Shown in pieces: positions 1-40,056 of a DNA stretch of 64,000 bases (position 1 is its first letter; each line of letters begins with the position of its first letter). Origin of the DNA: an uncultured Bacteroidota bacterium (lineage in GTDB: Bacteria > Bacteroidota > Bacteroidia > AKYH767-A > OLB10); the NCBI GenBank assembly GCA_903847585.1, contig CAINEC010000174.1, forward strand, positions 11,518 through 75,517, read 5' to 3'. A program made the translations under genes and the position numbers. The notes below the pieces were generated by a model. It saw only the letters and a program-made list of their open reading frames with translations. It was not told the origin of the DNA and did not search any database.

Positions 1-137
1 ATTTCAAGTTCTTTACCATGTGCTATGCAAGGTCCAAACAAATGTAATTCTGGAAATAAATTTACATTTGAATTATTCCCCAACATTCTACCCAACATGG
101 TAGTTCCCGATCTGCTGTTACCTACAATAAAAATCAT
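1..137 (-). CDS. Sulfotransferase, N-terminal fragment (gene runs off the left edge)
   Basis: Reverse-strand translation from the ATG at 137 gives MIFIVGNSRSGTTMLGRMLGNNSNVNLFPELHLFGP... GNSRSGTT is a PAPS 5'-phosphosulfate-binding loop. The ATG overlaps the stop of the upstream Wzy-like gene (ATGA at 134-137). It is absent from the ORF track because it has no stop in the window. Confidence 0.6.
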   Translation of the reverse strand, partial: MIFIVGNSRSGTTMLGRMLGNNSNVNLFPELHLFGPCIAHGKELE

Positions 138-1402
138 AATGTCTCTTCAATAGTATCTTTTCTATAACGGTAGTAATAAACAATTCCAAAGTATACAGCT
201 ACAACCCCAAAAAATTTCTGGTTAGAAGCGGCTGTGAAATAATCTGCAAATTGAAATAGCAGTACATAAATAGAGGACACAAGTAATGCATCATTTTTCT
301 CTTTTATTTTACGACTATATCTCCAAGTAATATAAAATGGAATGTAGAACACAAGGGTGCCTAATATTCCATACACGAATAAGTTTCCAAGAATTCCAAC
401 ATCAACAGGATAGAAATGTTTGTTTAAACTTCTAAAACCATCATTCCATTTTGTACTTAAAAATCCAACACCAAGTATAGGGTGTTTTATGAATCCATCT
501 AACGCAATTTTAGATTCCATAAAACGAATATTGGTAGAAGCTTCAGAAACCTTTTCTCCTGTTAATGTTTCTACTGCTGTGACATATAGTTTTATGTTTT
601 TTTCAACTAATCCCGGTGCTGCCAAAGACAAAGCACCGAAAATTAATACGCCACCCACACCTCCAATGATAAACGAACGAATAATTCGAGGGAATGAAAA
701 ATTTAAAAACACATAGGTTAAAATTGTTCCTGCGATGGCTATTAATTGAGTTCTATCCATTAAGTAGGCAAGAATGTAAAATGCACTTAGCATTAAAGAC
801 AATACCCATCCCTTTTCTTTAGCTACCCATATTTTGAATATGCTGTAAAGAAATAAACCATATATGCAGGAATCAGGAAATTCATATCGGAATCCTTTGT
901 TAGGACTTAGTGTTACAAATTCTGTATCTATGAAACGAGCTGGATTAACAAACATGTAAAATATCAAGAAAATAAAAAGCATGATATGTAATGAACCAAC
1001 AAAGTATTTTTCGAATTTTTCTTTTTTAAGCCATCCATCACCTAATGCAGTTGCAATGAAATGTGCACAAAGGACCATTGTTAATTGTCGTTGTGCTATT
1101 AGTCCAAATAATAGTGGTTGTCCAAAGACTCTACTCGCCTGTATCGCACTTATGAACGGCATAATTAAAAAAGGTAACATAATAAGCGTAATGTTTTTTA
1201 CCTTTCTTAATGAAATAGCTTTATACCACTCAAATAAGTAATGTGTTAGAAGTATAAATAAAAATGCTATTGATGTTACATCAACAAAAATTCTGTTCGG
1301 TACTCTACCGAATATAGAAAACGCACTTGCAAAAAATACAAACCAAAGAAGTTGATAGAAACTTCCTTTCACAAAATTGTTTACGTTGAATTGTATTTTC
1401 AC
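134..1402 (-). CDS. O-antigen polymerase/ligase-like (Wzy-type) polytopic membrane protein
   Basis: 422-aa ORF made almost entirely of hydrophobic helices plus one larger loop, as in O-antigen ligase/Wzy_C proteins. The GTG start at 1402 overlaps the stop of the upstream sulfotransferase. It sits inside a wzx/sulfotransferase operon. Confidence 0.6.
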   Translation of the reverse strand: MKIQFNVNNFVKGSFYQLLWFVFFASAFSIFGRVPNRIFVDVTSIAFLFILLTHYLFEWYKAISLRKVKNITLIMLPFLIMPFISAIQASRVFGQPLLFGLIAQRQLTMVLCAHFIATALGDGWLKKEKFEKYFVGSLHIMLFIFLIFYMFVNPARFIDTEFVTLSPNKGFRYEFPDSCIYGLFLYSIFKIWVAKEKGWVLSLMLSAFYILAYLMDRTQLIAIAGTILTYVFLNFSFPRIIRSFIIGGVGGVLIFGALSLAAPGLVEKNIKLYVTAVETLTGEKVSEASTNIRFMESKIALDGFIKHPILGVGFLSTKWNDGFRSLNKHFYPVDVGILGNLFVYGILGTLVFYIPFYITWRYSRKIKEKNDALLVSSIYVLLFQFADYFTAASNQKFFGVVAVYFGIVYYYRYRKDTIEETL

Positions 1403-2343
1403 GATTGTTTCCAGTTAGTAAGATTAATCGACAATAGTTTTTCTAATTTTTCGATGTCTGCTAAATAGAATTCATTTAACAGCTTACGGTATTCAGTCGG
1501 CAACTTATCATTGCTTTCTTTGGATAATATTTTTTTTAATTGCTTATGTATACCAAGCAACATCACTAATTTTCTAAGCTTCGTTTTAATTCCTCCTGAG
1601 GGCAATAAATAATCAACAATACTTTTTCTTGCTTCGTTCGCTTTTTTATTTTCGATAGGGATTGAATTAAGATTACTTGTGATACCAATAAAACTTAATA
1701 GCTTATTTATTATTTGCTGAGCATTTGATTTATAGTCGTCATAAAGACAAATGAATACTTGTTCTTTCGGAAATACATCTAAATATCGCTTTACTTGTTC
1801 ATAGTAAAATCCACCACTTAAGAATATAGGATCTTTTCCCCAAATAGGATTTGATATCAGATGATGTTTATCGAATTCACTTTTAAAATTAGCTGATACA
1901 AGTCCCATTCGTTTTTCCATATTGAAATGGCTCCAAGCTCTTTCAGCAGGGTTACGTAAGATAATGATGATTTTGGCTTGAGGATTATATTGATAAATAT
2001 TTTCTGCAGCTTTTAGCGAGTATAAATAACTTACACTTGCCTCTCCACATATTTGAGAATGTGCTGCCTTGCTAAATAGTTTTTTGTACAACGACTCCTG
2101 TCTGATAAATGCATTCCATAATTCACCTTGCATTCCATCATTAATCCATTGCGCAGCATTTTCCTTTTTTAATTTCTCTTGTAATCCTTTTCGTAATTCT
2201 TCAATCGCAACTTCATTATAAAAATAATTAGGTTCCTTTATTGGCGACATATAAATAGCCGCATGCGATGCAAGTGTTTGTTGCAAAGCAGTTGTGCCCG
2301 ATTTAGCAGCACCTACAATAAAGAAATCTGGTTTATTGTTCAT
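1399..2343 (-). CDS. Sulfotransferase (Sulfotransfer_1-like)
   Basis: 5'-PSB loop FFIVGAAKSGTT and 3'-PB motif RNPAERAWSHF. The ATG at 2343 (MNNKPDFF...) forms an ATGA overlap with the upstream stop. The ORF-track start at 2355 is a TTG extension. Confidence 0.85.
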   Translation of the reverse strand: MNNKPDFFIVGAAKSGTTALQQTLASHAAIYMSPIKEPNYFYNEVAIEELRKGLQEKLKKENAAQWINDGMQGELWNAFIRQESLYKKLFSKAAHSQICGEASVSYLYSLKAAENIYQYNPQAKIIIILRNPAERAWSHFNMEKRMGLVSANFKSEFDKHHLISNPIWGKDPIFLSGGFYYEQVKRYLDVFPKEQVFICLYDDYKSNAQQIINKLLSFIGITSNLNSIPIENKKANEARKSIVDYLLPSGGIKTKLRKLVMLLGIHKQLKKILSKESNDKLPTEYRKLLNEFYLADIEKLEKLLSINLTNWKQS

Positions 2344-3260
2344 CGTTGCAACCAATAAGGTAAATTGATATTAGGGAAGTTTTTAAGCATGGATGCTAAT
2401 CGCTCATTAGGACCATCATACATTTTTTTCAAGCGTGCAATAACTGCTTCGTCTCCTTTATTGGTTGCATCACTTTTCTTTTCATTCATGCCGTAGTAGA
2501 GTCCGCGGATAAAACGCTTTAGCTTGTAATGTTTTCTCCAGAACGTTTCTGTATGATGATTCACCCACAAAGCGAATTTATGTACAAAGGCAATTTTATA
2601 ATCAACCGTTCTGTTCTCAACGGTGAAGTCTTCTTTTTTATAAAATGAAAAATCAATGTTTAACCAATTGCAAATTTTCTTCATAACACCGGGGGTATCA
2701 TTCGATAATTCATCAAAGAATATAATCAGCAATCGATCTTTAAAATGCTCCATCCAAATAGGAAGAAAGGCAGCATAATCACCTTCTATAAGACCTTGCG
2801 TGATATGATCTGTTTCATTTGATTGACGAATTCCACTTTCGATAGAAGACGACATTTCAACAAATTGTTCTAATGTAGTATCCGCAGGAATTTCCAGTTT
2901 AGTTACACAATGACGGTAGAAAGAAATAAAACGATCAGTAGGTTCACGAAGAATAAAAATCATTTTCACATCATCGCCTAATCTTTCGTTGATGAAATTG
3001 ATTAAAGGTAAACCTCCATACAAGTAAGAAGGAGTTGTTTCTAAAACTAACTTCTCGTTATTGTAATGTTTGAAATGGGTTGCGTATACATCGTTGTTTG
3101 GCACTTCTTGGTTATAACGTGCTGGCAAAAGAAAAGCAAGTTCTTTAATTAACGAACCACAAACATCAGGATGCATCGATAAATACGTGTGTAATGATGT
3201 TGTACCTGCTTTATGTACGCCTCCAATAATTAAGTTGGGCAAATTATGTTTTCTTTCCAT
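2340..3260 (-). CDS. Sulfotransferase (divergent paralogue)
   Basis: PAPS loop LIIGGVHKAGTTSL and the downstream motif LREPTDRFISFY. ATG start at 3260. Confidence 0.8.
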   Translation of the reverse strand: MERKHNLPNLIIGGVHKAGTTSLHTYLSMHPDVCGSLIKELAFLLPARYNQEVPNNDVYATHFKHYNNEKLVLETTPSYLYGGLPLINFINERLGDDVKMIFILREPTDRFISFYRHCVTKLEIPADTTLEQFVEMSSSIESGIRQSNETDHITQGLIEGDYAAFLPIWMEHFKDRLLIIFFDELSNDTPGVMKKICNWLNIDFSFYKKEDFTVENRTVDYKIAFVHKFALWVNHHTETFWRKHYKLKRFIRGLYYGMNEKKSDATNKGDEAVIARLKKMYDGPNERLASMLKNFPNINLPYWLQR

Positions 3261-3263
3261 CTT

Positions 3264-4220
3264 TTATTTGAGCCAGTTACTTAAATCACGATTTATTAAT
3301 GCTTGTGTCTTTTCGATATCGTTTTTAAAAATGCTAATCAACCATTTCTTATCTTCTTCACTCATTTTCGGAATTTTCCCTTCTTTAAAGAATATTGGTT
3401 TTACTTTGGCTTGTATGCTATCGGGCAATGCTCTAAAGATTTTTCGTTTTAATCCCGTTTGTGTGATGAACTTTATTAGTCCTGCCCATTTAGGCATCTT
3501 CGCTTCATTTTGTTTATTTGAATAGTTGATAGAAGCATTGGCATCTACACCAATGAAATCAAATAACTTTTTTCCAACAACAGATGCATCCGACTTCAAA
3601 TCATCATTTAAAAAAATTAAAATTTGATTATTAGGAAACGCATCCATAAAACGTTTCACCTGCTCAAAGTACATTCCCATTTCAATATAATTATGAGAGA
3701 TGCACCACCCTTTATTTGTCTTTTTTAAATCAGCTTCTATTTCTTCACGAAAAGAAAGTGTGGTTCTGCCATCACGAACATTTGCGAGATAATGCGAGTA
3801 AGCTCTTGAAATGGGATTACGCAAAATCATGACAATGTTTGCCTGCGGATATTTTGCTTTTATTTCATTTGCTGATACTACTGAAAACAAATAGCCATTG
3901 CTGATTTCTCCAATTGCTTTTTGATTTGTAGCGTTCTTAAATAATTTTAAATAAGTTGCGAAGTCATCAACATACCATTCCCAGTATTTCTTCGACATAT
4001 CGCCAGCAACATATTCCTGAATGTTGATACCTCTTGAGAAAACATATTTTTTATACTCATCACTAAAGTTTTCAATTTGTATATCGCTGCAAAAGAAATG
4101 AGGTTCTTTAATTGGCGACATATAAACATCAGGATGCTGCTCTAAAAAATCATAGAGTGTAGTAGTTCCGCATTTGGCAGCACCGATTACAAAGAAATTA
4201 GGTTCTTTATTTTGTAGCAT
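3264..4220 (-). CDS. Sulfotransferase (Sulfotransfer_1-like)
   Basis: FFVIGAAKCGTTTL plus LRNPISRAYSHY. It is clearly paralogous to the 1399-2343 product over its full length. Confidence 0.85.
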   Translation of the reverse strand: MLQNKEPNFFVIGAAKCGTTTLYDFLEQHPDVYMSPIKEPHFFCSDIQIENFSDEYKKYVFSRGINIQEYVAGDMSKKYWEWYVDDFATYLKLFKNATNQKAIGEISNGYLFSVVSANEIKAKYPQANIVMILRNPISRAYSHYLANVRDGRTTLSFREEIEADLKKTNKGWCISHNYIEMGMYFEQVKRFMDAFPNNQILIFLNDDLKSDASVVGKKLFDFIGVDANASINYSNKQNEAKMPKWAGLIKFITQTGLKRKIFRALPDSIQAKVKPIFFKEGKIPKMSEEDKKWLISIFKNDIEKTQALINRDLSNWLK

Positions 4221-5565
4221 TTTTATTTCTGAACATTTTTAATTTTTCAATTCCTGGTAAGTAGATAGAAAGGATACCAAGATTTTTTTTCGCGTAAGCA
4301 ACGGATAATAAATTCTGAATAATTTTTGCCGATGAGGAGGAGATAGCAGCTCCTACTAATCCAATCTTAGGAACTAAGATCAAATTTAAAATAATACTAC
4401 CTATAGCCGTCGACGTTATAATCTTGTTGTATTGTTTCTGATGTCCCGACATTTGCAATAAAATACCAATTGACCCAGTTATGCTGTTTACGAAGTTTCC
4501 AATCGATAATAAAATCAAGGCAATCCATGCACCTTTAAAGTCTTCTCCTAAAAATCCTAGAATAGTTTCTGGAAAAAAGCATAGCACGAGTGTTAATGGT
4601 AACGAAGTAAAAAATAATAGTCGGTTTGATTTGATAATTATGTTTTGCAATCTCCCCATTTCTTTTTTGTGATATAAATCGGAGAATACAGGAGCTTGAA
4701 TGGCATTGATAGCAAGTAATACAATGGCCGATAGCGTTGATAGTTTAAATGCCACATCATAAAGTCCAACTTCTTCAGAAGGACGAAATATACCAAGTAT
4801 GATATTATCTGTCCAACCCATAATAAAAAACATCGAGCCTGTTAACATCATTGGCATTGATTCGCTCAGCATTTGATTCCAGTTAAGCGTAGGCTGATAA
4901 ATACCTTCTTTCATTTTACTGAATCGCCACCACGTTATAACGCTAATCAAGCAAGTGCCTAATGTTGCAAATGTGTAGGCATGCACAACACCCCAGTTCG
5001 ATTTCATGTAAAAAAGTACGAGGAGTAAAATAGCCGACAACAATGGTTGTATCGCTTTAAAGATCATAAAGCCAGTCATGTTTTTAAATCCGCGGTAACC
5101 AGCGCTGTTTAATCCAATTAGAACAAACGGAACAAAAGCCATACAGGTCTGCTGAAGTTCATCGGTAAGTTCTGGCTTGCTGAAAACTGTCCCTGCTATA
5201 AATGGTGCTGCAAAGAATGTTGCTATGGCCCAAATAGACGAGGCGGTTAGTGTTAATTGCAGCGATTGCAAATAAGTTGTTTTGATAATGGATGCATCCG
5301 CTTGATCTCGGTGTGCTGCAATAATTCTGGTTAAACGGTTATCAAGGCCCATCTGTGAGAAGATAGCGAATAGCTGAAGGACTGTGAAGCAGAGGGTAAA
5401 TGTACCTTGTTCTTTTGGACCGTATAAGCGAGCTACAATGAAAATGAATAAATACTGCGATATCATCCCCCCTAACCGAACGGCAAGTGCTAAAAAGCTC
5501 TTTTTCAGAACAAAGGAAGAATCTTTATCGCCTTTATGAAAAAACGAAGTCAGTCTTTTTATCAT
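4207..5565 (-). CDS. wzx: Polysaccharide/O-antigen flippase (Wzx, MOP superfamily)
   Basis: 452 aa with about 12 or more TM helices. The N-terminal pattern (LALAVRLGGMISQYLFIFIVARLYGPKEQG) is typical of the polysaccharide biosynthesis protein family. It is the first gene of the minus-strand operon. Confidence 0.8.
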   Translation of the reverse strand: MIKRLTSFFHKGDKDSSFVLKKSFLALAVRLGGMISQYLFIFIVARLYGPKEQGTFTLCFTVLQLFAIFSQMGLDNRLTRIIAAHRDQADASIIKTTYLQSLQLTLTASSIWAIATFFAAPFIAGTVFSKPELTDELQQTCMAFVPFVLIGLNSAGYRGFKNMTGFMIFKAIQPLLSAILLLVLFYMKSNWGVVHAYTFATLGTCLISVITWWRFSKMKEGIYQPTLNWNQMLSESMPMMLTGSMFFIMGWTDNIILGIFRPSEEVGLYDVAFKLSTLSAIVLLAINAIQAPVFSDLYHKKEMGRLQNIIIKSNRLLFFTSLPLTLVLCFFPETILGFLGEDFKGAWIALILLSIGNFVNSITGSIGILLQMSGHQKQYNKIITSTAIGSIILNLILVPKIGLVGAAISSSSAKIIQNLLSVAYAKKNLGILSIYLPGIEKLKMFRNKNATK

Positions 5566-5817
5566 TGATAACTCATAAACTGGTGGTGTAACGGTTTAGC
5601 GAAGCTAATGAATAATGCCTCGTCAAATAGCGGTTAATTAGAAGGGTAGTTCACAATAAAATGTTAACATTATCAGAGCAAGATAGAGGAATGCCACAAG
5701 TATTATAAAACCGATATTAAGTTATTATTCAGCTTGATTAGTTTACATAAACTTAATATTGCCTTAAATTAAAAATTGATTTAGACCTCGACTTTTGCAC
5801 CATCAATTCATTCTGTT

Positions 5818-6897
5818 ATGCGAATTATTATTCTGTTGATTTTAATGTTAGTTGGAAAATGTTCTATTGCTCAAAATGGACTAGAGGGAATAATCATTGA
5901 GAAGTACTATATTTCTGATGACGCAGATGCAAAAATCACGGATGGTGGCTATTTGAAGCCTGGCTCTGTGACTTATAGAATCTATGTTGATATGAAGCAG
6001 AAGTATAGTTTACAGGCTGTTTATGGAATTGGTGGCCATCCACTTAAGATAGCTACCACTACTTATTTTTTTAATAATACTATGAATGGAGGTGTTGTTG
6101 CCAATGATGTACCGAGATTTAGATTAGAAGAGCATACTACTATGCTTGATTCTTGGATATCAGTTGGTGCTGGATCAGAGGCAGATTATGGAATTCTGAA
6201 AACGAAAGATTCATATAATTCATTTACCAATAAGAATGGCATTTTAAAAAATAACAATCCAGAAGCGGGAATTCCGTTGACAAAATACGATGGATTACAA
6301 GCTGCAACTCCGCAACGGGTAGTTTCCTTTTATGGTATTGATAAAGCCGACTTAGAAATTTTTAATAATACAACCGATACAACTGCTAAAGGGCAGGTCT
6401 TTATGACTGAGAATGGTTCATGGGCTTCATTTGGAGGAGCCTATGGAACAGATTCTAATAATATAGTTTTGATTGCTCAGTTAACAACAGACGGGCAGCT
6501 ATCATTTGAATTAAATCTGCAGTTAGGAACCCCATTTGGAAGTACCGAAAATTATTACGCTAAGAATCCTCAGGGTTCTGAATTACAACTTCCTGATTTG
6601 ACTTATCCAGCGGTAAAAAATAGCGCTCCTGAAATAAAGTGGGTGGTAATTCCTAAGAATAAAAAAATAAAAAAATACGACCAACAAAAATTACAGTTTG
6701 TTGCGAGTGATAGTGACAATAACATCCGCAAGGTAGATTTATTTGTGAACGATCTTAAAATCACGGAATTGTTTGTTGCTCCATTTACGTTCAACTGGAA
6801 TCCACAAATGGACGGGAATGCTAAAGTTACCGCTGTGGTTTATGATTTTGCAGGAGCAAAAAGTAAAGCAGAGGAAATAACGTTTATCGTGCAATAA
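5818..6897 (+). CDS. Secreted protein, paralogue 1 of an unassigned N-terminal domain family, with a C-terminal Ig-like domain and no T9SS CTD
   Basis: Signal peptide MRIIILLILMLVGKCSIAQ. Shares the blocks EKYYISD, GSVTYRIYVDM, DSWISVGA, GILKTKD, NPEAGIPLT, NGSWASFGG and LIAQLTTDGQLSFELNLQLGTP with the products starting at 7056, 11277 and 15255. The C-terminus (ASDSDNNIRKVDLFVND...VTAVVYDFAGAKS) resembles the Ig repeats of the 15255 protein. Confidence 0.75.
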   Translation: MRIIILLILMLVGKCSIAQNGLEGIIIEKYYISDDADAKITDGGYLKPGSVTYRIYVDMKQKYSLQAVYGIGGHPLKIATTTYFFNNTMNGGVVANDVPRFRLEEHTTMLDSWISVGAGSEADYGILKTKDSYNSFTNKNGILKNNNPEAGIPLTKYDGLQAATPQRVVSFYGIDKADLEIFNNTTDTTAKGQVFMTENGSWASFGGAYGTDSNNIVLIAQLTTDGQLSFELNLQLGTPFGSTENYYAKNPQGSELQLPDLTYPAVKNSAPEIKWVVIPKNKKIKKYDQQKLQFVASDSDNNIRKVDLFVNDLKITELFVAPFTFNWNPQMDGNAKVTAVVYDFAGAKSKAEEITFIVQ

Positions 6898-7055
6898 TTA
6901 GCAACATTCCAATATTAATAAATTGTAAAGAATGATTGTTAACTTTTTGTAGCACTTAACCCAAACATAATATTTTGTTTCGTTTTTCATCATGTAAGGT
7001 TTGGAATTTTGGGGCTTGAAAACTTATACCTAACAAACCACTAAAAACAACCAAC

Positions 7056-8141
7056 ATGAAAAGAATTTACCTAATTGCATTATTGCTTATTACGGGCTTT
7101 GTTTCTAAAGCTCAAAACGGATTAGAAAATGTAGTAGTAGAAACCTATTATATTTCTGATGCCAACGATACTAATGCTAATCTTGATGGTGGAATTCTGC
7201 CAGTAGGTTCAGTGACTTACAGAATTTATGCAGATATGTTGCCAGGCTACAAGTTTCAGGCTGCTTATGGTGTACCAGGACATGATTTGAAAATTGCAAC
7301 AACTACTTTATTCTGGAATAATGAAGATCGTGGTTCAACATCTCCTACTTTTTCAAAAACAAATGCAGCAAGAAATACAGTTATGATCGATTCATGGTTA
7401 TCTGTTGGTGCTGCTTGCAATGGAAACTTCGGAATTATGAAATCAATGGATGATGGTTTAAATAATGCAGTAAATAACTATTCTCCACAAGTTTTACAAA
7501 ATAACGACCCTGCAATGGGAATTCCATTAACAGTTCAGGATGGATTTTTTGCAGGATTACCTGAGTCTGTAACTACAGTTGGAATTAGTACTGAAGTTGC
7601 TGTTTTTGATAACCTGAATGATGGGACTAATGGTCCATTATTTTTTACGAATAATGGTTCTTGGGCTTCTTTAAATGGTTCAACTGGTCCTGATCCAATA
7701 GATAATAAAGTATTAATCGCACAAATCACTACAAATGGTACTTTATCATTCGAATTAAACATTCAGATTGGTACTCCGACAGGTGGCGTAGAAAATTTTG
7801 TTGCTTCAAATCCTGTGGGAAGTGAAATTTCTATTCCTTCACTTACGTACACATCTCCAAGCATTGGTATTTACACTCCTTCATCAAAAAATGTTTCTTT
7901 CTCTGCTTTCCCTAATCCTGTAGAAAACAGTTTATTTATTAATACTGCAAATATTAAATCAGAAGAAGTTGTTTATTCTATTTATGACTTAACAGGAAAG
8001 ATGGTTGCTACTGGTTTGTTTGCTGTTAATGCTCAAAAGAATATTCAGCAAATTGAAGTAGACAAATTAAATACAGGACTTTACTTTATTGAGTTATCAG
8101 TAAACGGAACAAGTTCAACGCAAAAATTCATTAAAAAATAA
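7056..8141 (+). CDS. Secreted protein, paralogue 2 of the unassigned domain family, with a T9SS C-terminal sorting domain
   Basis: Signal peptide followed by QNGLENVVVETYYISD, GSVTYRIYADMLPGYKFQA, DSWLSVGA, NGSWASLNGSTGP and LIAQITTNGTLSFELNIQIGTPTGGVENF. The C-terminus FSAFPNPVENSLFIN...GLYFIELSVNG...QKFIKK is a typical Por/T9SS CTD. Confidence 0.8.
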   Translation: MKRIYLIALLLITGFVSKAQNGLENVVVETYYISDANDTNANLDGGILPVGSVTYRIYADMLPGYKFQAAYGVPGHDLKIATTTLFWNNEDRGSTSPTFSKTNAARNTVMIDSWLSVGAACNGNFGIMKSMDDGLNNAVNNYSPQVLQNNDPAMGIPLTVQDGFFAGLPESVTTVGISTEVAVFDNLNDGTNGPLFFTNNGSWASLNGSTGPDPIDNKVLIAQITTNGTLSFELNIQIGTPTGGVENFVASNPVGSEISIPSLTYTSPSIGIYTPSSKNVSFSAFPNPVENSLFINTANIKSEEVVYSIYDLTGKMVATGLFAVNAQKNIQQIEVDKLNTGLYFIELSVNGTSSTQKFIKK

Positions 8142-8161
8142 AAGCCCTTACGACTTCTAAT

Positions 8162-11100
8162 ATGAAGAAGCCAATACTACTACTAGTAATCTTAATTTCT
8201 TGTGTTGTTAGTTCATTCGGGCAAGGAACAGTTCGCGGAAAAATAATTGACACCAATGGTGAAACGCTCATAGGCGTAACCGTTATGTTAAAAAATAATC
8301 GTTCAGTAGGTACAAGTTCAGATTTCGATGGAAATTATTCCCTGACCTTTAAAGATGCAGGCCCTCAAGTTTTAGTGTTTACATATGTAAGTTATAAAAC
8401 ACAAGAAATTACTGTTAATCCGGAAGGAAAAGTAGTAGTGAAAGATATCATCATGGAATCGTCAGCACAGGAGTTAAAAGGTGTTGAAGTTTCTGCGAAA
8501 GCAACAAAAGCAAGAGAGTATTTTTCTGAAATGGTGAAGAAAAATGCTGCTGTTTCGATGGATTATATTTCTTCTGAAACAATGAAGAAAACAGGAGACG
8601 CAAATGTTGTTGCTGCTGTTTCTCGTGTGTCTGGTGTTTCTACGAATGGTGGTTTTATTACTGTTAGAGGTATTGGCGATAGATATGTGAAAACATCGGT
8701 AAATGGTTCTATGATTCCAACATTAGATCCGTTTACTAATAATATCAAATTAGATTTATTTCCTGCTAGTTTAATTGACAACGTTTTTATTACTAAAACG
8801 GCAAGCCCTGATTTACCTGGTGATTGGGCAGGAGCATTTTTATCGGTAGAAACGAAAGACTATCCTGATAATCTTGCTATTAATGTAGAAACTAGTTTCG
8901 GTTATAATAATCAATCTTCATTTAAAAATGTTGTTTCTTCTGACAGAAGTTCAACGGATTGGTTAGGATACGATGATGGATTTAGAAGTTATGATCACGC
9001 GTCGTTTGCTTTTGCAAATACAGAGCCTACTTTATTGCAAACATTTTCTGCTTTAGGATTAGGAGATTACTTTAGTTCTTTAGGTGTAACTTCAATTGAT
9101 CCTACTGAAGATATTTTTAATACTTATTATAAATTAGGATTAGTACAATTAGGTTTGTTGGCACCAGCATTATTTGATGATCCAACTGCCTTTAATCAAG
9201 CTAAAGATTTATTTAATGCTGGAGGGTACAAGTCTGATGCATTTAACTCAATTAATGCTAATGCACCGGCTTCTGCAAAGAGGTTCGCAAATAACTGGAA
9301 TACTACTACATGGAATGCTCCTTTAAACTTTTCTCAAAGTTTTAGTATTGGTAATCAGGTTAATTTATTTGGAAGACCTTTAGGTTTTATTGCAGGATTT
9401 AAATACGGATCAAGTGTAGTATATGATCCACAATCAGAAGTAGTACGTTGGGTATATGATGAATTAGAAGGTCAGAAAAGAACGGAAAATATTTCACAGC
9501 AGGCTAGTCGTGAAACAAATGGTTGGAGTGCACTTTTTAACGTGGCTTATAAATTAAATCCTAATAACAGTGTTTCCTTTTTATTCATGCCAAATTTAAC
9601 AGGTGTAAATAATGTGCGTAATTCTTTTGATAACTCTGAACCGCAACTTACTCGTATTACAAAGAGTCAGTTTTTTGAGCAGAGAAGTCAATTGGTTTAT
9701 CAATATAAATCGGAACATTATATACCAAAGTATAAATTAAAAATTGAAGCAAATGCTTCCTATACCAATGGTAACAGCCAGATTCCGGATTTCAAAAATA
9801 TACGTTACATCGAAAATATTGATGGCACATTTCAAATTGAAGGAACAACAGGATCAATTGCTCGTTTTTATCGTTATTTGAATGATGATTTTTTTGATTC
9901 AAGAATTTCTTTTGAATTACCTATTTCAAAAGATACCACTGGATTATCACGCAAATTGAAATTTGGTGGCGCATATCAACGAAACAATAAGGAGTATGAC
10001 CAGTATCAATACGATGTAAGAACAGAAAGAAGTACGTTTTCTGGTGACTTAAATTCATTCTTGGATAACTCATATTTTGATATTCAGACTATTGGTGGTG
10101 TTTCATCTTTCTCTACCTATTACAATAGTTCAGAGTATAGCAACTTTGGCCCTGTTAATCATACTTTTGGAAATACGTCAATATTCGCTGGGTATGTAAT
10201 GTCGGATTATGCCATTAATAAGAAATTACGTGTGTCAGGTGGGGTAAGATTAGAAAAGGCAGATTTTTATACGGATGTGGTCTTGTTCGATTCGTTGAAT
10301 TATGCACCAGATGATGATAGACGAGTTTATGATAACAGCTTGCCGATTGCAAATCCTGGAGAGTTAAACGAGTTGAGTGTTTTACCAAGTATTAACGTAG
10401 TTTATAAGCTTAAAGAAAAAGAAGGAGCGCCTACTAATATTCGTTTGAATTATAGTAGCTCTGTTGCTCGTCCAAGCATTCGTGAGTTATCCGACATCGC
10501 AGTTTTTGATTACGAATATCGTTTAGCCGTAATAGGTAATTCAGATTTGAAAATGGTGAATATTAATAACTATGATATCCGCTATGAAAAATATTATCCT
10601 TCAGGAAATGATTTTTCTGCAAGTATGTTTTTCAAGACATTTAAAAATCACATCGAATTAGTTAACTCAAATTTCATTACTTGGCAAAATGTAGATTATT
10701 CTACTGTTGTAGGTGCAGAGTTTGAAGGCAAAAGAAAACTAACTAAGAAATTAGAAGGCCGTACCAATATTACTTTTGTTAAATCAGCAACAGAGGTTGT
10801 ACAAAGTACTATTTACGTAAATAATGGAATTAAGAATTTTGTGCCAATTGATACGGTTAAGCGTTCTATGTTCGGACAAGCACCTTATATCTTTAATGCT
10901 ATTTTGACATATAATGAAGATAGCCTTGGTTTAAGTGTATCATTATCGTATAATGTTCAGGGGCCACGATTGGTATTATCAGTAGGGCAGACAGATGTTC
11001 CAGATATTTTTGAGTTGCCTAGAAATACTATTGATTTAAAAGTGTCTAAAAAATTGGGTAAACACTTTACCGTTAGTTTAACAGGACGCGATTTATTAAA

Positions 11101-11272
11101 TGCTCCAATTGCGAGAGCCTATAATTATAGTGATGGTTCGTACGAATCAGGACTAGGGAATAGCATAAACAAGTTGTTTGATTCTCCAATCTTTAGAAAA
11201 GATTGGAATCAATCCTACGATAAATTTCGTTTCGGTTCTAGTTTCCAGGTAGGTGTTTCTTATAAGATATAA
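8162..11272 (+). CDS. TonB-dependent outer-membrane receptor with an N-terminal CarboxypepD_reg domain
   Basis: 1036 aa with a signal peptide. GTVRGKIIDTNGETLIGVTVMLKN is the carboxypeptidase-regulatory-like fold. The plug region is SRVSGVSTNGGFITVRGIGDRYVKTSVNGSMIP, followed by a long beta-barrel with alternating-residue strands to the C-terminus. Confidence 0.9.
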   Translation: MKKPILLLVILISCVVSSFGQGTVRGKIIDTNGETLIGVTVMLKNNRSVGTSSDFDGNYSLTFKDAGPQVLVFTYVSYKTQEITVNPEGKVVVKDIIMESSAQELKGVEVSAKATKAREYFSEMVKKNAAVSMDYISSETMKKTGDANVVAAVSRVSGVSTNGGFITVRGIGDRYVKTSVNGSMIPTLDPFTNNIKLDLFPASLIDNVFITKTASPDLPGDWAGAFLSVETKDYPDNLAINVETSFGYNNQSSFKNVVSSDRSSTDWLGYDDGFRSYDHASFAFANTEPTLLQTFSALGLGDYFSSLGVTSIDPTEDIFNTYYKLGLVQLGLLAPALFDDPTAFNQAKDLFNAGGYKSDAFNSINANAPASAKRFANNWNTTTWNAPLNFSQSFSIGNQVNLFGRPLGFIAGFKYGSSVVYDPQSEVVRWVYDELEGQKRTENISQQASRETNGWSALFNVAYKLNPNNSVSFLFMPNLTGVNNVRNSFDNSEPQLTRITKSQFFEQRSQLVYQYKSEHYIPKYKLKIEANASYTNGNSQIPDFKNIRYIENIDGTFQIEGTTGSIARFYRYLNDDFFDSRISFELPISKDTTGLSRKLKFGGAYQRNNKEYDQYQYDVRTERSTFSGDLNSFLDNSYFDIQTIGGVSSFSTYYNSSEYSNFGPVNHTFGNTSIFAGYVMSDYAINKKLRVSGGVRLEKADFYTDVVLFDSLNYAPDDDRRVYDNSLPIANPGELNELSVLPSINVVYKLKEKEGAPTNIRLNYSSSVARPSIRELSDIAVFDYEYRLAVIGNSDLKMVNINNYDIRYEKYYPSGNDFSASMFFKTFKNHIELVNSNFITWQNVDYSTVVGAEFEGKRKLTKKLEGRTNITFVKSATEVVQSTIYVNNGIKNFVPIDTVKRSMFGQAPYIFNAILTYNEDSLGLSVSLSYNVQGPRLVLSVGQTDVPDIFELPRNTIDLKVSKKLGKHFTVSLTGRDLLNAPIARAYNYSDGSYESGLGNSINKLFDSPIFRKDWNQSYDKFRFGSSFQVGVSYKI

Positions 11273-11276
11273 TACA

Positions 11277-12587
11277 ATGAAAACGATAATTAAATTCATA
11301 GCTCTGTTTTTGTTTATTGGATTAAACACGCAGGCGCAAATTCAAAATGTAATAGTTGAAAAATACTATGTTGCTGATTCATTCGATATTGCTAATACCG
11401 ATGGTGGTCAGTTGCAACAAGGTGCGGTGACTTATCGCGTATATGTTGACTTAGAAAGTGGAAGTAAAATTTCACGCATTTTTGCTGATTCATTGCATTT
11501 GTTAAAATTTAAAAGCAGTCAGCCTTTTTTTAATAACGACACTCTAAGTACTTTTAATGGAGGTACCTACGGATTTAAAATCAATAGAAATGATTTAGCA
11601 ATCAATACCGTTGGTTTAGATAGTTGGATTAGTATCGGTGCAGCAACAAATAAACATCATGGTATTTTAAAAACAGAAGATACCGATGGTACTGAAGTAG
11701 GTGGGACGAACAATGATCAGAATTTATTAAGTAATACCGATCCAAGTGCAGGTATTCCTTTAACAACGCAAGATGGTTTGATTTTATCAAGTGTACTTGT
11801 ATCAAACTATTTAGTAGGTGGCGATTTTCCGGCTATTAATTCATTAAACGATTCAACTATATTTGGTAGTGATACTGCAACAGCATTTATAACTCCAAAT
11901 GCTACCTTGCAATTTAATGGTGGTATATTAGGACAAGGTCCATCAAACAATGTATTGGTTGGTCAATTTACTACAGCTGGTCAATTGGAGTTTGAATTAA
12001 ACATTACCGTTATTGATAGTACGGGAGCTACAATTAATTATGTTGCTTCTGGTAATGACACAGTTATTCAAAATTCAATTTATAAATCATTGCCATTATT
12101 AAAGTATCCACCACAATGCGGATGTTTAGATCCTAATTATATTGAATACAATGCTCAAAATGCTTGCAGCGATTCTTCTAAATGTTTAACGTTGGTGAAG
12201 CTAGGTTGTATGGATACACTTGCATGTAACTATGATGTTGATGCAAATTACTCTGTACCTGAAATGTGTTGTTATCCTGGATACTGCAACGATCGTGATA
12301 TTGCATTTGTTTGTCCAGATATTAATACAGGGAATCGTATTATGACGGTGTTTCCAAATCCTACCAATAGCGAGATTAATATCAATCTTGATGGTGTAAA
12401 AAATATTGGTGAGACACAATTTGTGTTGTTGAACTCATTCGGGAAAGAGATGATGAACTTTTCAGAAAACATTTCAGAAGGCGTTTGGACAAAAAACATT
12501 TCGCTTAACAATTTAGTTAGTGGAATCTATATTTTAAAAATGATTTCTAACGAAGAAGTTCAATCGCAGGTCATCATTAAAAATTAA
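11277..12587 (+). CDS. Secreted protein, paralogue 3 of the unassigned domain family, with a Cys-rich module and a T9SS CTD
   Basis: ATG at 11277 (MKTIIKFIALFLF...AQ signal peptide); the track start at 11253 is a GTG inside the receptor gene. Shared blocks EKYYVADS, GAVTYRVYVDL, DSWISIGA, GILKTEDTDG, DPSAGIPLTTQDG and FTTAGQLEFELNI. The CTD is VFPNPTNSEININ...GIYILKM. Confidence 0.8.
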   Translation: MKTIIKFIALFLFIGLNTQAQIQNVIVEKYYVADSFDIANTDGGQLQQGAVTYRVYVDLESGSKISRIFADSLHLLKFKSSQPFFNNDTLSTFNGGTYGFKINRNDLAINTVGLDSWISIGAATNKHHGILKTEDTDGTEVGGTNNDQNLLSNTDPSAGIPLTTQDGLILSSVLVSNYLVGGDFPAINSLNDSTIFGSDTATAFITPNATLQFNGGILGQGPSNNVLVGQFTTAGQLEFELNITVIDSTGATINYVASGNDTVIQNSIYKSLPLLKYPPQCGCLDPNYIEYNAQNACSDSSKCLTLVKLGCMDTLACNYDVDANYSVPEMCCYPGYCNDRDIAFVCPDINTGNRIMTVFPNPTNSEININLDGVKNIGETQFVLLNSFGKEMMNFSENISEGVWTKNISLNNLVSGIYILKMISNEEVQSQVIIKN

Positions 12588-12589
12588 AA

Positions 12590-13342
12590 ATGGAAACAAC
12601 GTTTATGAATTACTTTAAAAAATATTTCTATTTATTTCTATTACTTTTTGTCATCACCATTGGATTTACAGCTTGTGATGATGATGAAGTGACACCTGTA
12701 ATTGTTAATGAAACAGGTAGTGTTACGGATATAGAAGGTAACGTGTATAAAACAGTTAAGATTAACGGTAAATGGTGGATGGCCGAAAATTTAAAAGTGA
12801 AAACTTTTAATGACGGAACATCCATTAACAATGGCCAAACAGATTTTAGCTGGAAGGATTCATTACCTGCTTATTGCTTGTATAATAATTTAGGAACTGC
12901 ACCAGGATTATTGTATAATTCATATGCTGTATTAAGTGCCAAAGGATTGGCTCCTCAAGGATGGCATATTGCAACCGATGAAGAATGGAAGGCCTTAGAA
13001 CAATCGCAGGGAATGTCTGCTGCAACAGCTAATTCATTTGGATGGAGAGGAAGTGATGAGGCTCAGAAATTAAAAATTGAAGGAGCTAAAGGATGGGTGC
13101 GTTATTTAGACCTATGGCCTACTAATGAGTCTGGTTTTTCAGCAAGTGCGGGTAGCTGCCGTTTGCCAAATGGTGTTTTTGGTGATCCTGGTTTAATGCA
13201 TACGGGATTTTGGTGGACAACAACAGCAGATAATGTAAGTGGTGAACTTTTGTATCGTTACATGGATTATAAGAAGACAAGTATTCTGCGATCGCACAGC
13301 GAAAATGGTTACGGATTCAGTGTTCGATGTGTCAAAGATTAA
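12590..13342 (+). CDS. FISUMP (Fibrobacter succinogenes major paralogous domain) lipoprotein
   Basis: Lipobox ITIGFTAC. Hallmark sequence TDIEGNVYKTVKINGKWWMAENLKV...GWHIATDEEW...GFWWTTT...GFSVRCVKD. Confidence 0.85.
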   Translation: METTFMNYFKKYFYLFLLLFVITIGFTACDDDEVTPVIVNETGSVTDIEGNVYKTVKINGKWWMAENLKVKTFNDGTSINNGQTDFSWKDSLPAYCLYNNLGTAPGLLYNSYAVLSAKGLAPQGWHIATDEEWKALEQSQGMSAATANSFGWRGSDEAQKLKIEGAKGWVRYLDLWPTNESGFSASAGSCRLPNGVFGDPGLMHTGFWWTTTADNVSGELLYRYMDYKKTSILRSHSENGYGFSVRCVKD

Positions 13343-13360
13343 ATCAAAAAAATCATAAAG

Positions 13361-13386
13361 AAGAGGCCCTTAGGGGCCTCTTTTAT
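13361..13386 (+). terminator. Rho-independent terminator after the FISUMP gene
   Basis: aagaggccc-ttag-gggcctctt perfect stem followed by a T-tract, 19 nt after the stop codon. Confidence 0.8.
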
Positions 13387-13536
13387 TTTAATGTTAACAG
13401 AATGTATTTTCAAAGTAAATGTCTTAACATTAAAGTGCTTTAAAGGTAAAGATTTCATAAGTTATTTTTTCAGTTAAATTTTTGTTGGCGTTCTACTTTT
13501 GGTGCAGGAAAAATAAAAAACCAAAATTATAAACCA

Positions 13537-15213
13537 ATGAAAAAATTAATTACAAGAATTGCATTAGCAGCATCGGCTGTATTTGCATTGGCAACAACAT
13601 CGTTTGCCCAAACAAATTTAGGAGCAGATTGCGGATGTCCATCTGTATCTAACCGTACTACAACTGTTTTATTATCATCTCTAGCTACCGTAGGTGGTAC
13701 TGATGATGGTAACTTAACAGATTCTATCACTATCCTTGATTGTTCAAAATTGTACATCTTGGATAAGAAAATTTATGTGCCTAATGGAAAATCGTTAATT
13801 ATTAACCCAGGTGTTGTTGTTAAAGCTCGCTCTTATTCTACTGCCGATTCAGCTGTTGCATTAACAGTTTCAAGAGGAGGTAAAATTTTCGCTAATGGAA
13901 CTGAATCATGTCAGATCGTATTTACTGCTGAAGCAGATCCAATGGATGGAACTTATGCATTATCAAACAAAGGAAAATGGGGTGGTATTGCTATCGCTGG
14001 TAAAGCAACAAACAACTTAAAGTTATCTCCAAACGGTCCTTTCTCTGTTGGTGTTGCTGGTAAAATTTGTGTTGCTGATGGATTAGGAACTTTCGAAGGT
14101 TTCAACTCAACTAACTACAAAGATCAATTTGGTGCTAATTTAACAGCAGGTGAAACTTTTAATGATAATGATAACTCAGGTATCATGACTTATGTTTCTA
14201 TCCGTCACTCAGGAGCTATCCTAGTTTTAGGTGGTGAGTTAAATGGTCTTTCTTTAGGTTCAGTAGGTCGTGGAACAACAATCGATCATATCGAGATTGT
14301 TTCTTGCGCTGATGATGCAATTGAAATGTTTGGTGGAACTGTAAACGTAAAGCACTATACTACATTATTTAACAATGATGATATGTATGATTATGATTTA
14401 GGATATACAGGAAAGGGTCAATTCATTTTTGGTATCTATGCTTCTGATACTACAGTTAGTGCTGATGCTGATAACGCTTTCGAAATGGATTCTGATGATC
14501 AAAAATCAAACTTACTTCCTCGTTCACATCCTGTTGTTTACAATGCTACAATGATTGGTAACAATAAGAAAACATTATCTGCTGATAATTCAGGTTTATC
14601 TGTTTTCCAAGCAAAAGAATTAGCTGAAGGTGAGTTTTACAATTCAGTTTTTGCAAACTTCCGTTATGGTTTAAATTTAATTAAGTCTGTTGGTACAAGA
14701 ACAGGTGGTTTCGAAGCATACCATAACTGGGCTAATACAGGTGGTAATTCAACTAACAGCTTAAAAATTAAGTGTAATGCATTTGTTGGTATAACAAAAG
14801 ATATCGCTATCGATAAAAATGCTGCTACAGCAGTTTCTGCTACTGACTCTGCACAATTCTTTACTACTGACTTAAATACAAGCTTTGCGTCATTACCAGG
14901 ATTCGTTCCAACATGGGCTGCAAACTTTACTACTAACACTGTTACTACAAAGTTTGATGCAGTTCCAAATCCACAAATCACCAACGCTGCAGGATGTCCT
15001 ACACCAGCAGCTGATGGTTTCTTCACTCCAGTAACTTACAAAGGTGCATTCCCTGCTACAGGTAAAAACTGGTTATCAAACTGGGCTTACGCTCAACTAC
15101 TTAACGTTACTACAGGATTACAGCCATGTGCTACTGATTGTAATGCTGATGGTATTACAAACAACGTTGACTTCTTACAATTATTAGGACAATTCAATCA
15201 GTCTTGTCAATAA
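13537..15213 (+). CDS. Secreted protein with beta-helix-like repeats and a C-terminal dockerin-like Ca-loop motif; function unknown
   Basis: Signal peptide MKKLITRIALAASAVFALATTSFAQ. Repetitive G/N/T-rich rungs (NATMIGN, YNSVFANF) and acidic motifs DDAIEMFGGTVN and DNAFEMDSDD. The tail is CATDCNADGITNNVDFLQLLGQFNQSC. Confidence 0.6.
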   Translation: MKKLITRIALAASAVFALATTSFAQTNLGADCGCPSVSNRTTTVLLSSLATVGGTDDGNLTDSITILDCSKLYILDKKIYVPNGKSLIINPGVVVKARSYSTADSAVALTVSRGGKIFANGTESCQIVFTAEADPMDGTYALSNKGKWGGIAIAGKATNNLKLSPNGPFSVGVAGKICVADGLGTFEGFNSTNYKDQFGANLTAGETFNDNDNSGIMTYVSIRHSGAILVLGGELNGLSLGSVGRGTTIDHIEIVSCADDAIEMFGGTVNVKHYTTLFNNDDMYDYDLGYTGKGQFIFGIYASDTTVSADADNAFEMDSDDQKSNLLPRSHPVVYNATMIGNNKKTLSADNSGLSVFQAKELAEGEFYNSVFANFRYGLNLIKSVGTRTGGFEAYHNWANTGGNSTNSLKIKCNAFVGITKDIAIDKNAATAVSATDSAQFFTTDLNTSFASLPGFVPTWAANFTTNTVTTKFDAVPNPQITNAAGCPTPAADGFFTPVTYKGAFPATGKNWLSNWAYAQLLNVTTGLQPCATDCNADGITNNVDFLQLLGQFNQSCQ

Positions 15214-15254
15214 GCAATTAGTACAATTAATAATTATTATTAGAAATTTATTTT

Positions 15255-18659: not shown

Positions 18660-18674
18660 TAATTTTCTAATCTT

Positions 18675-18711
18675 AAAAGGTCGGTTCAAGTTTTTTGAAC
18701 CGACCTTTTTT
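18675..18711 (+). terminator. Rho-independent terminator after the 15255 gene
   Basis: ggtcggttcaa-gtttt-ttgaaccgacc perfect 11-bp stem flanked by an upstream A-run and a downstream T6 run. Confidence 0.85.
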
Positions 18712-18736
18712 ATAACTAGAATAAACTAATAAACCA

Positions 18737-23822: not shown

Positions 23823-23823
23823 C

Positions 23824-26631: not shown

Positions 26632-26853
26632 ATTTGACCTTAGGTAAGGTTTACAATTCAATTTGCGAATTTCGCCCTTTTTTCCCAATTATTAAACTTT
26701 TATTTAAGCTATATCAATCAAATTCAATTTAAATTAAGGGGAATAAATGGGGTGTCTACCAATTTAACTTTTTAAACCGGTATAATTAGACTCTGAATAG
26801 CGATAAAAGACAGTTTAAAAAGCACTAAAAAATTAAATCATGTTAGGTTATTA

Positions 26854-35996: not shown

Positions 35997-36009
35997 TGTA
36001 CTGGTTTGA

Positions 36010-40043: not shown

Positions 40044-40056
40044 GGTGTTATAATAT

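Follow-up and report, generated by a model that had tools for sequence, protein, structure and literature searches.

In papers published up to 2026, bacteria that make sulfated polysaccharides are said to be limited to cyanobacteria and a few marine strains. The Bacteroidota are treated in the literature as consumers, not producers, of such polymers, and in one metagenomic study sulfotransferase (ST) genes are lacking from all its Bacteroidetes metagenome-assembled genomes (MAGs). Here we describe a tightly packed operon with four ST genes from an uncultured freshwater Bacteroidota bacterium. It occupies positions 1-5565, on the minus strand, of a 64,000-nucleotide stretch of contig CAINEC010000174.1 (positions 11,518 to 75,517), referred to below as the window. 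Judged by its genes, the probable product of the locus is a polysaccharide of the surface or the extracellular space, multiply sulfated and assembled through the Wzx/Wzy route. The initial annotation of the window called multiply sulfated surface polysaccharides uncommon in bacteria and, with a reservation, poorly characterised in Bacteroidota, and the literature agrees that sulfated polysaccharides of bacteria are rare and little understood outside the cyanobacteria and a few marine bacteria. No account of such a locus in Bacteroidota came up in our literature search.

One of the closest described systems is the xss cluster of Synechocystis sp. PCC 6803, which produces synechan. Like the present locus, it is a Wzx/Wzy exopolysaccharide (EPS) cluster with embedded STs of different subfamilies. 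Its product is proven, sulfation is assumed to occur on the lipid-linked unit in the cytoplasm, and its two STs and eight glycosyltransferases (GTs) match two sulfates per eight sugars (PMC8205485).

The capsular polysaccharide locus of Vibrio sp. KMM 8419 is similar in another respect. Its STs are accompanied by cysN, cysD and cysC (second copy), genes that the window holds too, and its product is chemically proven (PMC11641403). [quoted passage not shown] That locus differs in using Kps-type ABC export instead of Wzx/Wzy, in having three STs spread over 80 genes and in belonging to a gammaproteobacterium; cysQ, present here, is not mentioned in the main text of that paper (PMC11641403).

A third example is the wps-1 cluster of Actinoplanes missouriensis. 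According to the available part of its description, it shares with the present locus Wzx/Wzy, two STs of different families (one of them heparan-sulfate-ST-like) and a glycoside hydrolase (GH), and its product is, as here, only predicted to be sulfated (PMC13390465). The differences given there are the actinomycete host, two STs instead of four, a hydrolase of family GH26, and the presence of Wzz, a methyltransferase and a kinase-like protein; that part reports no PAPS cassette (PMC13390465).

The operon, its PAPS genes and its relatives

The first gene of the operon is wzx (4207-5565), which encodes a flippase of 452 amino acids (aa). It is followed by ST1 (3264-4220, 318 aa), ST2 (2340-3260, 306 aa), ST3 (1399-2343, 314 aa, or 318 aa from an alternative TTG start at 2355) and the gene of a Wzy-like membrane protein with a GTG start (134-1402, 422 aa, Pfam Wzy_C). 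The sixth gene, ST4 (1-137), is cut by the window edge after its first 45 codons (MIFIVGNSRSGTT...). All six are on the minus strand. In operon order, wzx and ST1 overlap by 14 nt, ST1 and ST2 are 3 nt apart, and the following three junctions overlap by 4 nt each. Comparison with the list of open reading frames (ORFs) and a computation of the gaps show that the positions, strand and overlapping or nearly overlapping junctions of the initial annotation are all exact. The gene identities that it assigned (wzx, STs, Wzy-like) are upheld by Pfam and by sequence and structure matches in PDB.

The operon continues to the left of the window on the ENA contig L001, which comes from the same organism. 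This contig encodes an identical Wzy-like protein and can be used as the continuation because it differs from the window by one mismatch over the 3898 bases of their overlap. Past the window edge it carries the complete ST4 (L001 3762-4766, 334 aa, by translation and Pfam), a GH5 protein annotated as 'Cellulase' (380 aa), a GT4 (386 aa) and the first part of a GT2. The extension had been proposed as the place to look for the priming and elongating GTs: it supplies a GT4 and a GT2, but the priming transferase is not found there.

The order of the eight operon genes is preserved in six related MAGs wherever the contig reaches. The ratio of nonsynonymous to synonymous substitution rates (dN/dS) lies between 0.02 and 0.22 for all eight genes in comparisons with five related MAGs, which indicates purifying selection. 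With conserved order and purifying selection, the operon is not a chance assembly. A genome scan with the Wzy-like protein leads to six Bacteroidota MAG contigs, named for surface water, ponds and similar sources, with the same gene order and 65-99% protein identity. Related MAGs stem from river and pond water and, it seems, from activated sludge.

A complete set for PAPS synthesis and for the removal of its by-product, 3′-phosphoadenosine 5′-phosphate (PAP), is present on the same strand, and all four proteins pass their NCBIfam cut-offs. The APS kinase gene cysC (26026-26688) matches Pfam APS_kinase (4.3e-70) and the NCBIfam adenylyl-sulfate kinase model (293 bits, cut-off 163). The two subunits of ATP sulfurylase are encoded by cysD (small subunit, 25124-26029; Pfam PAPS_reduct; NCBIfam CysD, 452 bits, cut-off 195) and cysN (GTPase subunit, 23824-25098; TIGR02034, 574 bits, cut-off 336; NF003478, 600.6 bits, cut-off 590). 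The fourth gene, cysQ (23007-23831; TIGR01331, 269.8 bits, cut-off 228.8), encodes a 3′(2′),5′-bisphosphate nucleotidase for PAP removal. Three further minus-strand genes, assigned by Pfam and NCBIfam, follow: an LpxH-like metallophosphoesterase (21932-22792), a GT of the MJ1255/VC2487 family (20868-21935) and a GH1 beta-glucosidase (19477-20865).

A physical link between these genes and the operon is seen in related loci. In L011, L012 and L013, orthologues of cysC-D-N-Q are upstream of wzx and on its strand, contiguous with the ST operon (the L012 stretch covers only the 3′ end of cysN and cysQ). Such proximity is also seen for cysQ by itself, which is directly upstream of wzx and on its strand in L010, in L011 and in at least 8 of 80 metagenome loci. 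In L012 and L013, the interval from cysQ to wzx is taken up by same-strand orthologues of the phosphoesterase, the GT and the GH1 enzyme (54-70% identity). These three are possibly accessory to the pathway; the role is uncertain because L011, with cysQ abutting wzx, has none of them.

The related cassettes show variations of one architecture, and those of L009-L014 surround more distant homologues of ST1 (46-56% identity). In L009 and L014, both from Bacteroidia, the order is wzx-ST-ST-Wzy, a protein of 468-485 aa, then ST-ST-GT4-epimerase-GT4, with a WbaP-type priming transferase following on the opposite strand. The metagenome contig L011 begins with a sulfate permease and cysC-cysD-cysN-cysQ, which lead directly into wzx-ST-ST-Wzy, a protein of 505 aa and the same ST-ST-GT4-epimerase-GT4 series. 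The Bacteroidia loci L012 and L013 combine cysC-D-N-Q, phosphoesterase-GT-GH1, wzx, three or four STs, the Wzy-like gene, GH5 and GT4 with a convergent glmS, and the layout of L095 (a Bacteroidetes MAG) and L018 (a metagenome contig) is that of the window. Outside the phylum, the anammox planctomycete Ca. Jettenia ecosi (L010, SULG01000020.1) has cysQ-wzx-Wzy-ST-ST-ST-GT4-GH20-GT4. By BLAST, the distant Bacteroidia loci have orthologues of Wzx, ST1, ST4, GT4 and the Wzy-like protein; the Jettenia locus gives no match to ST4 and the Wzy-like protein.

The architecture is kept down to about 30-50% protein identity, and its core consists of three to five STs of two subfamilies, one to three GTs, Wzx and the Wzy-like protein, often with a glycanase and cysQ. 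It is spread over many Bacteroidia MAGs, the anammox genus Jettenia and dozens of metagenome contigs, some of them named for marine, sediment and activated-sludge samples. The Jettenia relative of ST1 is 48% identical, and a relative of ST4 named for Ca. Kuenenia (P0236) is 40% identical. The protein of 468-505 aa that fills the slot after the Wzy-like gene in L009, L011 and L014 was considered as a glycosidase and rejected: it has no Pfam match even at E = 1, and a precomputed domain table gives it only 'faint' ASD1 flags. For this reason a glycanase is not claimed as universal in the cassettes.

Recombination breakpoints are common within surface-glycan loci. The comparison of L006 with the window suggests such a breakpoint inside the operon around ST2/ST3, making L006 a mosaic: Wzx and ST1 are 97% identical (dS about 0.2), whereas identity is 78-80% for the Wzy-like protein and ST4 (dS about 2.6).

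Four divergent sulfotransferases

The Pfam cut-offs that apply here are 22 and 27 bits for Sulfotransfer_1 and Sulfotransfer_3, 28 for Polysacc_synt and 31.7 for Wzy_C. ST1-3 match both Sulfotransfer_1 and Sulfotransfer_3 at 50-69 bits, with an E-value of 7.4e-19 for ST3 against Sulfotransfer_1; ST2 is additionally above the cut-off for Sulfotransfer_2. The full-length ST4, taken from L001, matches Sulfotransfer_3 at 87.5 bits (2e-24). NCBIfam gives no family match for the STs, nor for the Wzy-like protein and GH5.

The PAPS-binding motifs are present in every enzyme. The loops reported in the initial annotation, GAAKCGTT (ST1), GGVHKAGTT (ST2), GAAKSGTT (ST3) and GNSRSGTT (ST4), are all found in the translations. 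This 5′-phosphosulfate-binding (PSB) loop, of the general form G-x-x-K/R-x-G-T/S-T, is near the N-terminus, at residues 6-13 (residue 13 in ST1 and 11 in ST3); it contains Lys in ST1-3 and Arg in ST4, and is nearly invariant across 39 relatives of ST4 in an alignment. The 3′-phosphate-binding (3′-PB) motif has the form I-(L/I)-R-x-P...S and reads ILRNPISRAYS in ST1, ILREPTDRFIS in ST2, ILRNPAERAWS in ST3 and IIRDPRDVVLS in ST4, with RNPISRAYS at residue 134 of ST1 and RNPAERAWS at residue 130 of ST3. A candidate catalytic Glu is kept in all four STs (in the context 'LETT' in ST2). In a HMMER alignment, the Glu of 'GEIS' in ST1 is paired with the Glu of 'FEKS' in the NDST1 N-sulfotransferase domain, a position which we take to be that of the catalytic base, as in NST-1 and HS3ST.

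The enzymes were proposed to be four distinct STs, and their identities bear this out: they share 35% between ST1 and ST3, 27% between ST1 and ST2 and about 23% between ST4 and the others, so they are old paralogues and not recent copies. They also evolve differently. ST1 is better conserved than any other ST of the cassette (46-58% identity in distant loci), and ST2 is largely lineage-specific, its best distant match being the Jettenia STa at 31%. ST3 is the fastest-evolving of the four and still constrained (dN/dS 0.10-0.22), and orthologues of ST4 in L009, L011, L012, L014, L018 and L095 are 36-53% identical.

The closest solved relative of ST1 and ST3 is 3RNL, a structural-genomics entry for an ST of Alicyclobacillus acidocaldarius, whose title names neither function nor acceptor and which is therefore silent on mechanism. 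Like ST2 and ST3, ST1 matches it over the full length (1.9e-46), followed by the NDST1 N-sulfotransferase domain (3e-13) and HS3ST3A1 (2.6e-9). The corresponding PDB sequence matches are 3RNL (1.5e-10), HS3ST3A1 (3e-8) and HS3ST1 (2e-7) for ST2, and 3RNL (8.5e-33), then HS3ST5, HS3ST1 and NST for ST3. The animal N-sulfotransferase domain of NDST and the HS3ST1/3/5 enzymes share with ST1-3 the PSB loop, the 3′-PB motif and the Glu (E 3e-13 to 1.8e-5). The identity in the HMMER alignments is about 25%, a level from which neither the acceptor sugar nor the N- or O-position can be read. The animal heparan sulfate STs act in the Golgi lumen, whereas ST1-3 are predicted to be soluble and cytoplasmic and have no deacetylase domain.

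For ST4, the PDB search by sequence gives only weak matches. Its AlphaFold2 model (predicted local distance difference test, pLDDT, 89.7) has a clear sulfotransferase fold, with 51 PDB matches at E <= 0.001; all 50 of those listed have the sulfotransferase fold. From their sequences, ST1-3 belong to the PAPS-dependent, heparan-sulfate-ST-like type, and ST4 to the Sulfotransfer_3 subfamily with the Arg loop.

No signal peptide is found on any of the four STs. ST1-3 have no hydrophobic segment, and ST4 has none at its N-terminus. Unique among the four, ST4 carries a hydrophobic stretch near its C-terminus, at residues 296-314 (...LWYLGILPVKGVLALMLNW...), modelled as a long helix. This helix could act as a membrane tether beside a lipid-linked substrate.

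The genomic context of the ST4 family was examined in metagenomes because its acceptor class is the least clear of the four. A scan with the ST4-family alignment gives at least 406 confirmed matches, and 80 loci were examined, of which 38 are at least 8 kb long. Their neighbours were annotated with HMMs built from the sequences of this analysis; these models are narrow, so the counts are lower bounds. At least one glycan-assembly gene (Wzx, GT4 or priming transferase) is present in at least 29 of the 38 long loci: Wzx in at least 21, GT4 in at least 25 and the priming transferase in at least 10. Three or more STs occur in at least 21 of these loci, four or more in at least 14, and a PAPS-pathway gene in at least 10. 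The ST4 family thus has a strong, though not exclusive, association with glycan clusters.

The proposed pathway and alternative readings

The remaining proteins of the operon fit a glycan-assembly system. Wzx is a member of the MOP/PST family with about ten hydrophobic segments, and matches Polysacc_synt (100 bits, 1.8e-28) and Polysacc_synt_3 (9.4e-21), both above their cut-offs. In L009-L014, L018 and L095 the first gene of the cassette is again an orthologue of wzx, with 30-58% identity. The GH5 protein has an N-terminal signal or anchor, and its nearest relatives are GH5 endoglucanases (E about 1e-29). The GT2 that follows GT4 (320 aa) resembles polyprenyl-phosphate sugar synthases (AglJ, PpgS, ArnC). 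On longer related contigs it is followed by one or two TPR membrane proteins of 630-660 aa, one of them with a PMT_2 (GT-C) domain, and then by convergent glmS. This module, at L008 11767-16760 and L004 6866-9837, with the start of GT2 at L001 7116-7499, looks like a system for periplasmic glycosylation from lipid-phosphate sugars, which could further decorate the polymer.

The following pathway is put together from gene content and from what is known of Wzx/Wzy systems and PAPS-dependent STs. CysD/CysN and CysC would convert sulfate into PAPS, and CysQ would clear the inhibitory by-product PAP. A short repeat unit linked to undecaprenyl diphosphate would be assembled on the cytoplasmic face of the inner membrane, primed by a phosphoglycosyl transferase from another locus and extended by the GT4 of the operon and possibly by the MJ1255-type GT. 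The four soluble, divergent STs would then sulfate the lipid-linked unit at different positions, after which it would be flipped by Wzx and polymerised by the Wzy-like protein. The GH5 endoglucanase-like enzyme, anchored by its signal, may trim or release chains in the periplasm, and export would proceed through a polysaccharide co-polymerase (PCP) and outer membrane polysaccharide export (OPX) system encoded elsewhere.

Sulfation is placed before flipping because the STs carry no signal peptide and PAPS is a cytoplasmic cofactor. The earlier suggestion of a repeat unit sulfated at several positions before export gains support, at the level of sequence, from these points, from the PAPS linkage, from the breadth of the cassette and from the occurrence of the ST4 family in glycan clusters, and none of the statements of the initial annotation is contradicted. 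The STs are as many as the GTs or more, so several sulfates would be expected on only two or three sugars. The ratio of four STs to one to three GTs here, and of three or four to two plus the primer elsewhere, points to a small, densely sulfated repeat. Speculatively, the combination of GH5 and the GH1 beta-glucosidase hints at beta-linked glucose in the backbone.

A number of observations weigh against this pathway. All carriers of the cassette are uncultured MAGs, and the product is predicted from genes alone. The Pfam scans reveal no priming phosphoglycosyl transferase of the WbaP/WecA type in the window and the operon extension, no Wza, and neither Wza nor Wzc in or adjoining the operon in the lineage of the window. 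The PAPS cassette of the window is on the same strand as wzx and about 17 kb away from it, with a 13.7-kb plus-strand block of unrelated genes in between, so that co-regulation of the two is here hypothetical; its genes could also serve ordinary sulfur assimilation. The Wzy-like protein scores 30.1 bits with Wzy_C, slightly below the cut-off, and its closest structural match is a ligase, with no Wzy structure among the PDB matches. ST4 is structurally nearest to STs acting on acyl-ACP or peptides, and some of its relatives are automatically named Stf3, after the menaquinone ST. The last two groups of observations lead to different readings of the locus.

The first of these concerns the Wzy-like protein, which could be a WaaL- or PglL-type ligase. 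In that case a single sulfated unit would be transferred to lipid A-core, as an O-unit or lipooligosaccharide (LOS), or to protein as an O-glycan, and no long polymer would be made. The AlphaFold2 model of the protein (pLDDT 81.8) has as its top Foldseek match in PDB the WaaL ligase 7TPG (E 7e-5, TM-score 0.53-0.55), followed by FtsW and RodA, and NCBI names its homologues 'O-antigen ligase family protein'. The operon also lacks Wzz, Wzc and Wza, its GTs are very few, and a sulfated O-antigen made by Wzx and a ligase is proposed for Vibrio KMM 8419 (PMC11641403). The fold, as modelled, confirms membership of the Wzy/WaaL superfamily and fits a polymerase as well as a ligase. However, PF04932 and the WaaL fold are common to Wzy polymerases, for which the PDB matches offered no structure to compare, and the generic NCBI name merely follows from the Pfam match; most of the homologues have a precomputed PF04932 domain.

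The genomic context favours a polymerase. The Wzy-like gene is in the same slot in every cassette examined, and the window holds a second Wzy_C protein within a second glycan cluster; two such proteins, each in its own glycan cluster, are expected of cluster-specific polymerases and not of a single ligase. The co-polymerase Wzc precedes wzx in L096 and is found near the cassette in L054, L061, L024 and L092. A periplasmic endoglycanase such as GH5 is best explained by a polymer. The conserved residues of the Wzy-like protein are R105, R293, E296 and D334. On balance we regard the ligase as unlikely, though it is the alternative to be taken most seriously.

In the second alternative, the acceptor of some STs (chiefly ST4) or of all four would be a lipid, a molecule of the polyprenyl or quinone type, a peptide or a small metabolite, and only a shared need for PAPS would bring the enzymes together in one cluster. 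The nearest solved folds of ST4 are the ST domains of CurM and of olefin synthase (OLS), and TPST1/2, ahead of carbohydrate STs. The naming of its relatives after the mycobacterial menaquinone ST, the hydrophobic helix near its C-terminus and the adjacency of the MJ1255-type GT and the LpxH-like phosphoesterase to cysQ agree with such a role. In 8 of the 38 long loci, about a fifth, the models recognise no glycan-assembly gene near the ST4 relative; in a Pfam census the neighbours in those eight loci are mostly unrelated genes, with WecG in three members and GT4 in two. Against this stands the position of ST4, which shares 4 nt with the Wzy-like gene, has GH5 and GT4 after it, and has its orthologues in the same slot in the six loci named above. 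The context of the 29 long loci with Wzx, GT4 or a priming transferase, the sequence matches of ST1-3 to carbohydrate STs and the lack of lipid, polyketide or peptide biosynthesis genes in the operon also speak for a glycan acceptor, and we consider a non-glycan target quite improbable.

It is hardly credible that the operon is a remnant, decaying or silent, whose number of STs comes from functionless duplication, since the one point in its favour, the failure of the sigma-70 scan to identify a promoter for an operon whose expression is predicted from sequence, is opposed by intact ORFs with translationally coupled junctions, low dN/dS in all five comparisons, intact motifs, deeply divergent STs that are not recent duplicates and an architecture conserved to about 30-50% identity.

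Surroundings of the operon, significance and known systems

The 252-bp divergent intergenic region at 5566-5817 is the presumed promoter region of the wzx operon, a role assigned from the gene arrangement only. A sigma-70 scan of positions 1-6000 gives 26 promoter-like sites against 26.2 expected, with Bacteroidota promoters lying outside the model of the tool; a terminator scan of the same positions gives 2 terminator-like sites against 3.6 expected. By eye, no clean -33/-7 motif is seen in 5566-5817. A search with Rfam over the whole window has no match, hence no riboswitch, leader or rRNA is indicated.

The plus-strand block (5818-19474) that separates GH1 from wzx encodes proteins with sorting tails of the type IX secretion system (T9SS) and a TonB-receptor-like protein. 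Three paralogues share an un-annotated N-terminal domain (5818-6897, 7056-8141 and 11253-12587, the last two with T9SS sorting tails), and the receptor-like protein with CarboxypepD_reg and Plug domains is located at 8162-11272. The block also encodes a Fib_succ_major protein, a 558-aa protein with no Pfam match, a 1134-aa Big_7/T9SS protein and a cohesin-like T9SS protein. Homologues of its first genes (43-91% identity) are divergent beside wzx in L006, L008, L018 and L095, and a functional tie between the block and the sulfated glycan is possible. A recent insertion of the block, splitting a unit of cysCDNQ, phosphoesterase, GT and GH1 from wzx, was considered and withdrawn because L018 and L095 share the block next to wzx at the same depth as the contiguous L012 and L013. 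The two layouts are found at comparable evolutionary depth, and either may be the ancestral one.

Divergent from cysC, the plus strand at 26854-31138 encodes a YceI-like protein, a hybrid-type histidine kinase with Reg_prop and Y_Y_Y domains (965 aa) and a LytTR regulator; the kinase and the LytTR protein are candidate regulators of the PAPS cassette.

The window contains a second, larger surface-polysaccharide cluster, which has no ST (35232-52287 on the minus strand and 52562-54609 on the plus strand). It encodes a Wzc-like tyrosine autokinase (49984-52287; domain model TIGR01007, 164.9 bits, cut-off 108), an ABC-transporter protein, WecB, a FemAB-like protein, a methyltransferase, a fusion of GT2 with polysaccharide deacetylase, an epimerase, three GT4s, the second Wzy_C protein (38736-40124), a hexapeptide acyltransferase and a GT2. 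Adjoining it are the genes of GDP-mannose dehydratase and of an epimerase/reductase. The Wzc of this cluster might serve the ST operon too. Further to the right, a 157-aa ORF with no Pfam match (55501-55974) precedes a stop-free plus-strand frame of at least 2670 codons, which leaves the right end of the window (55989-64000) and has a signal-like N-terminus (...LALTLVVALLSFTADAQN...). Its GC content is 0.39-0.40, compared with about 0.34 elsewhere in the window, and it is probably a giant surface protein.

The significance of the cassette is related to polymers resembling glycosaminoglycans (GAGs). Sulfated exopolymers and putative GAG-type STs are described in Pontiella (PMC7356697), and anammox granules are reported, in work cited in the literature, to contain sulfated polymers of the GAG-like kind. 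In a 2023 study, both the producers of sulfated GAG-like EPS and the bacterial pathway to it are called unknown, and BLAST with reference STs mostly fails in wastewater granules; its authors call the pathway a bottleneck (PMC10483923). We tentatively suggest that the widespread cassette makes hypersulfated GAG-like polymers, with about three to four sulfates per di- or trisaccharide, and may supply the genetic basis, so far missing, for the sulfated GAG-like material that is measured in sludge (activated and granular), in anammox granules and in freshwater aggregates.

A cassette in which STs outnumber GTs, with a PAPS economy of its own, provides candidate genes for the sulfated GAG-like polymers of wastewater granules. 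The joint presence of ST1-type and ST4-type enzymes, Wzx and cysQ can serve as a marker set in metagenome surveys, and heterologous expression of the set of about 8-12 genes could give densely sulfated glycans with no need for animal enzymes. Should the product be ordinary or unsulfated, the locus is otherwise a standard surface-glycan operon.

The comparison with the synechan cluster shows both the likeness and the distance. The xss cluster has two STs against eight GTs, whereas the present locus has four STs with one GT4, a GT2 resembling polyprenyl-phosphate sugar synthases and perhaps the MJ1255-type GT as well. Neither the regulatory module XssQ/R/S nor the PCP of xss has a counterpart next to the operon in the Pfam scans, which detect no STAND regulator and no PCP there. 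Among the ORFs of at least 120 aa in positions 1-55974 there is no STAND regulator, and the sole two-component pair is the histidine kinase and LytTR protein at 27477-31138. The cysCDNQ genes and GH5 are additions of this locus over xss, and the phylum differs too. With no XssQ/R/S and a very different ratio of STs to GTs, the locus is not a member of xss as defined; it is set apart by gene content alone. The kind of system, a synechan-type Wzx/Wzy sulfated exopolysaccharide, is already known and no new principle is involved. New here are the phylum, the compact conserved architecture with three to five STs and very few GTs, the frequent fusion with cysQ or cysCDNQ and the breadth of its spread.

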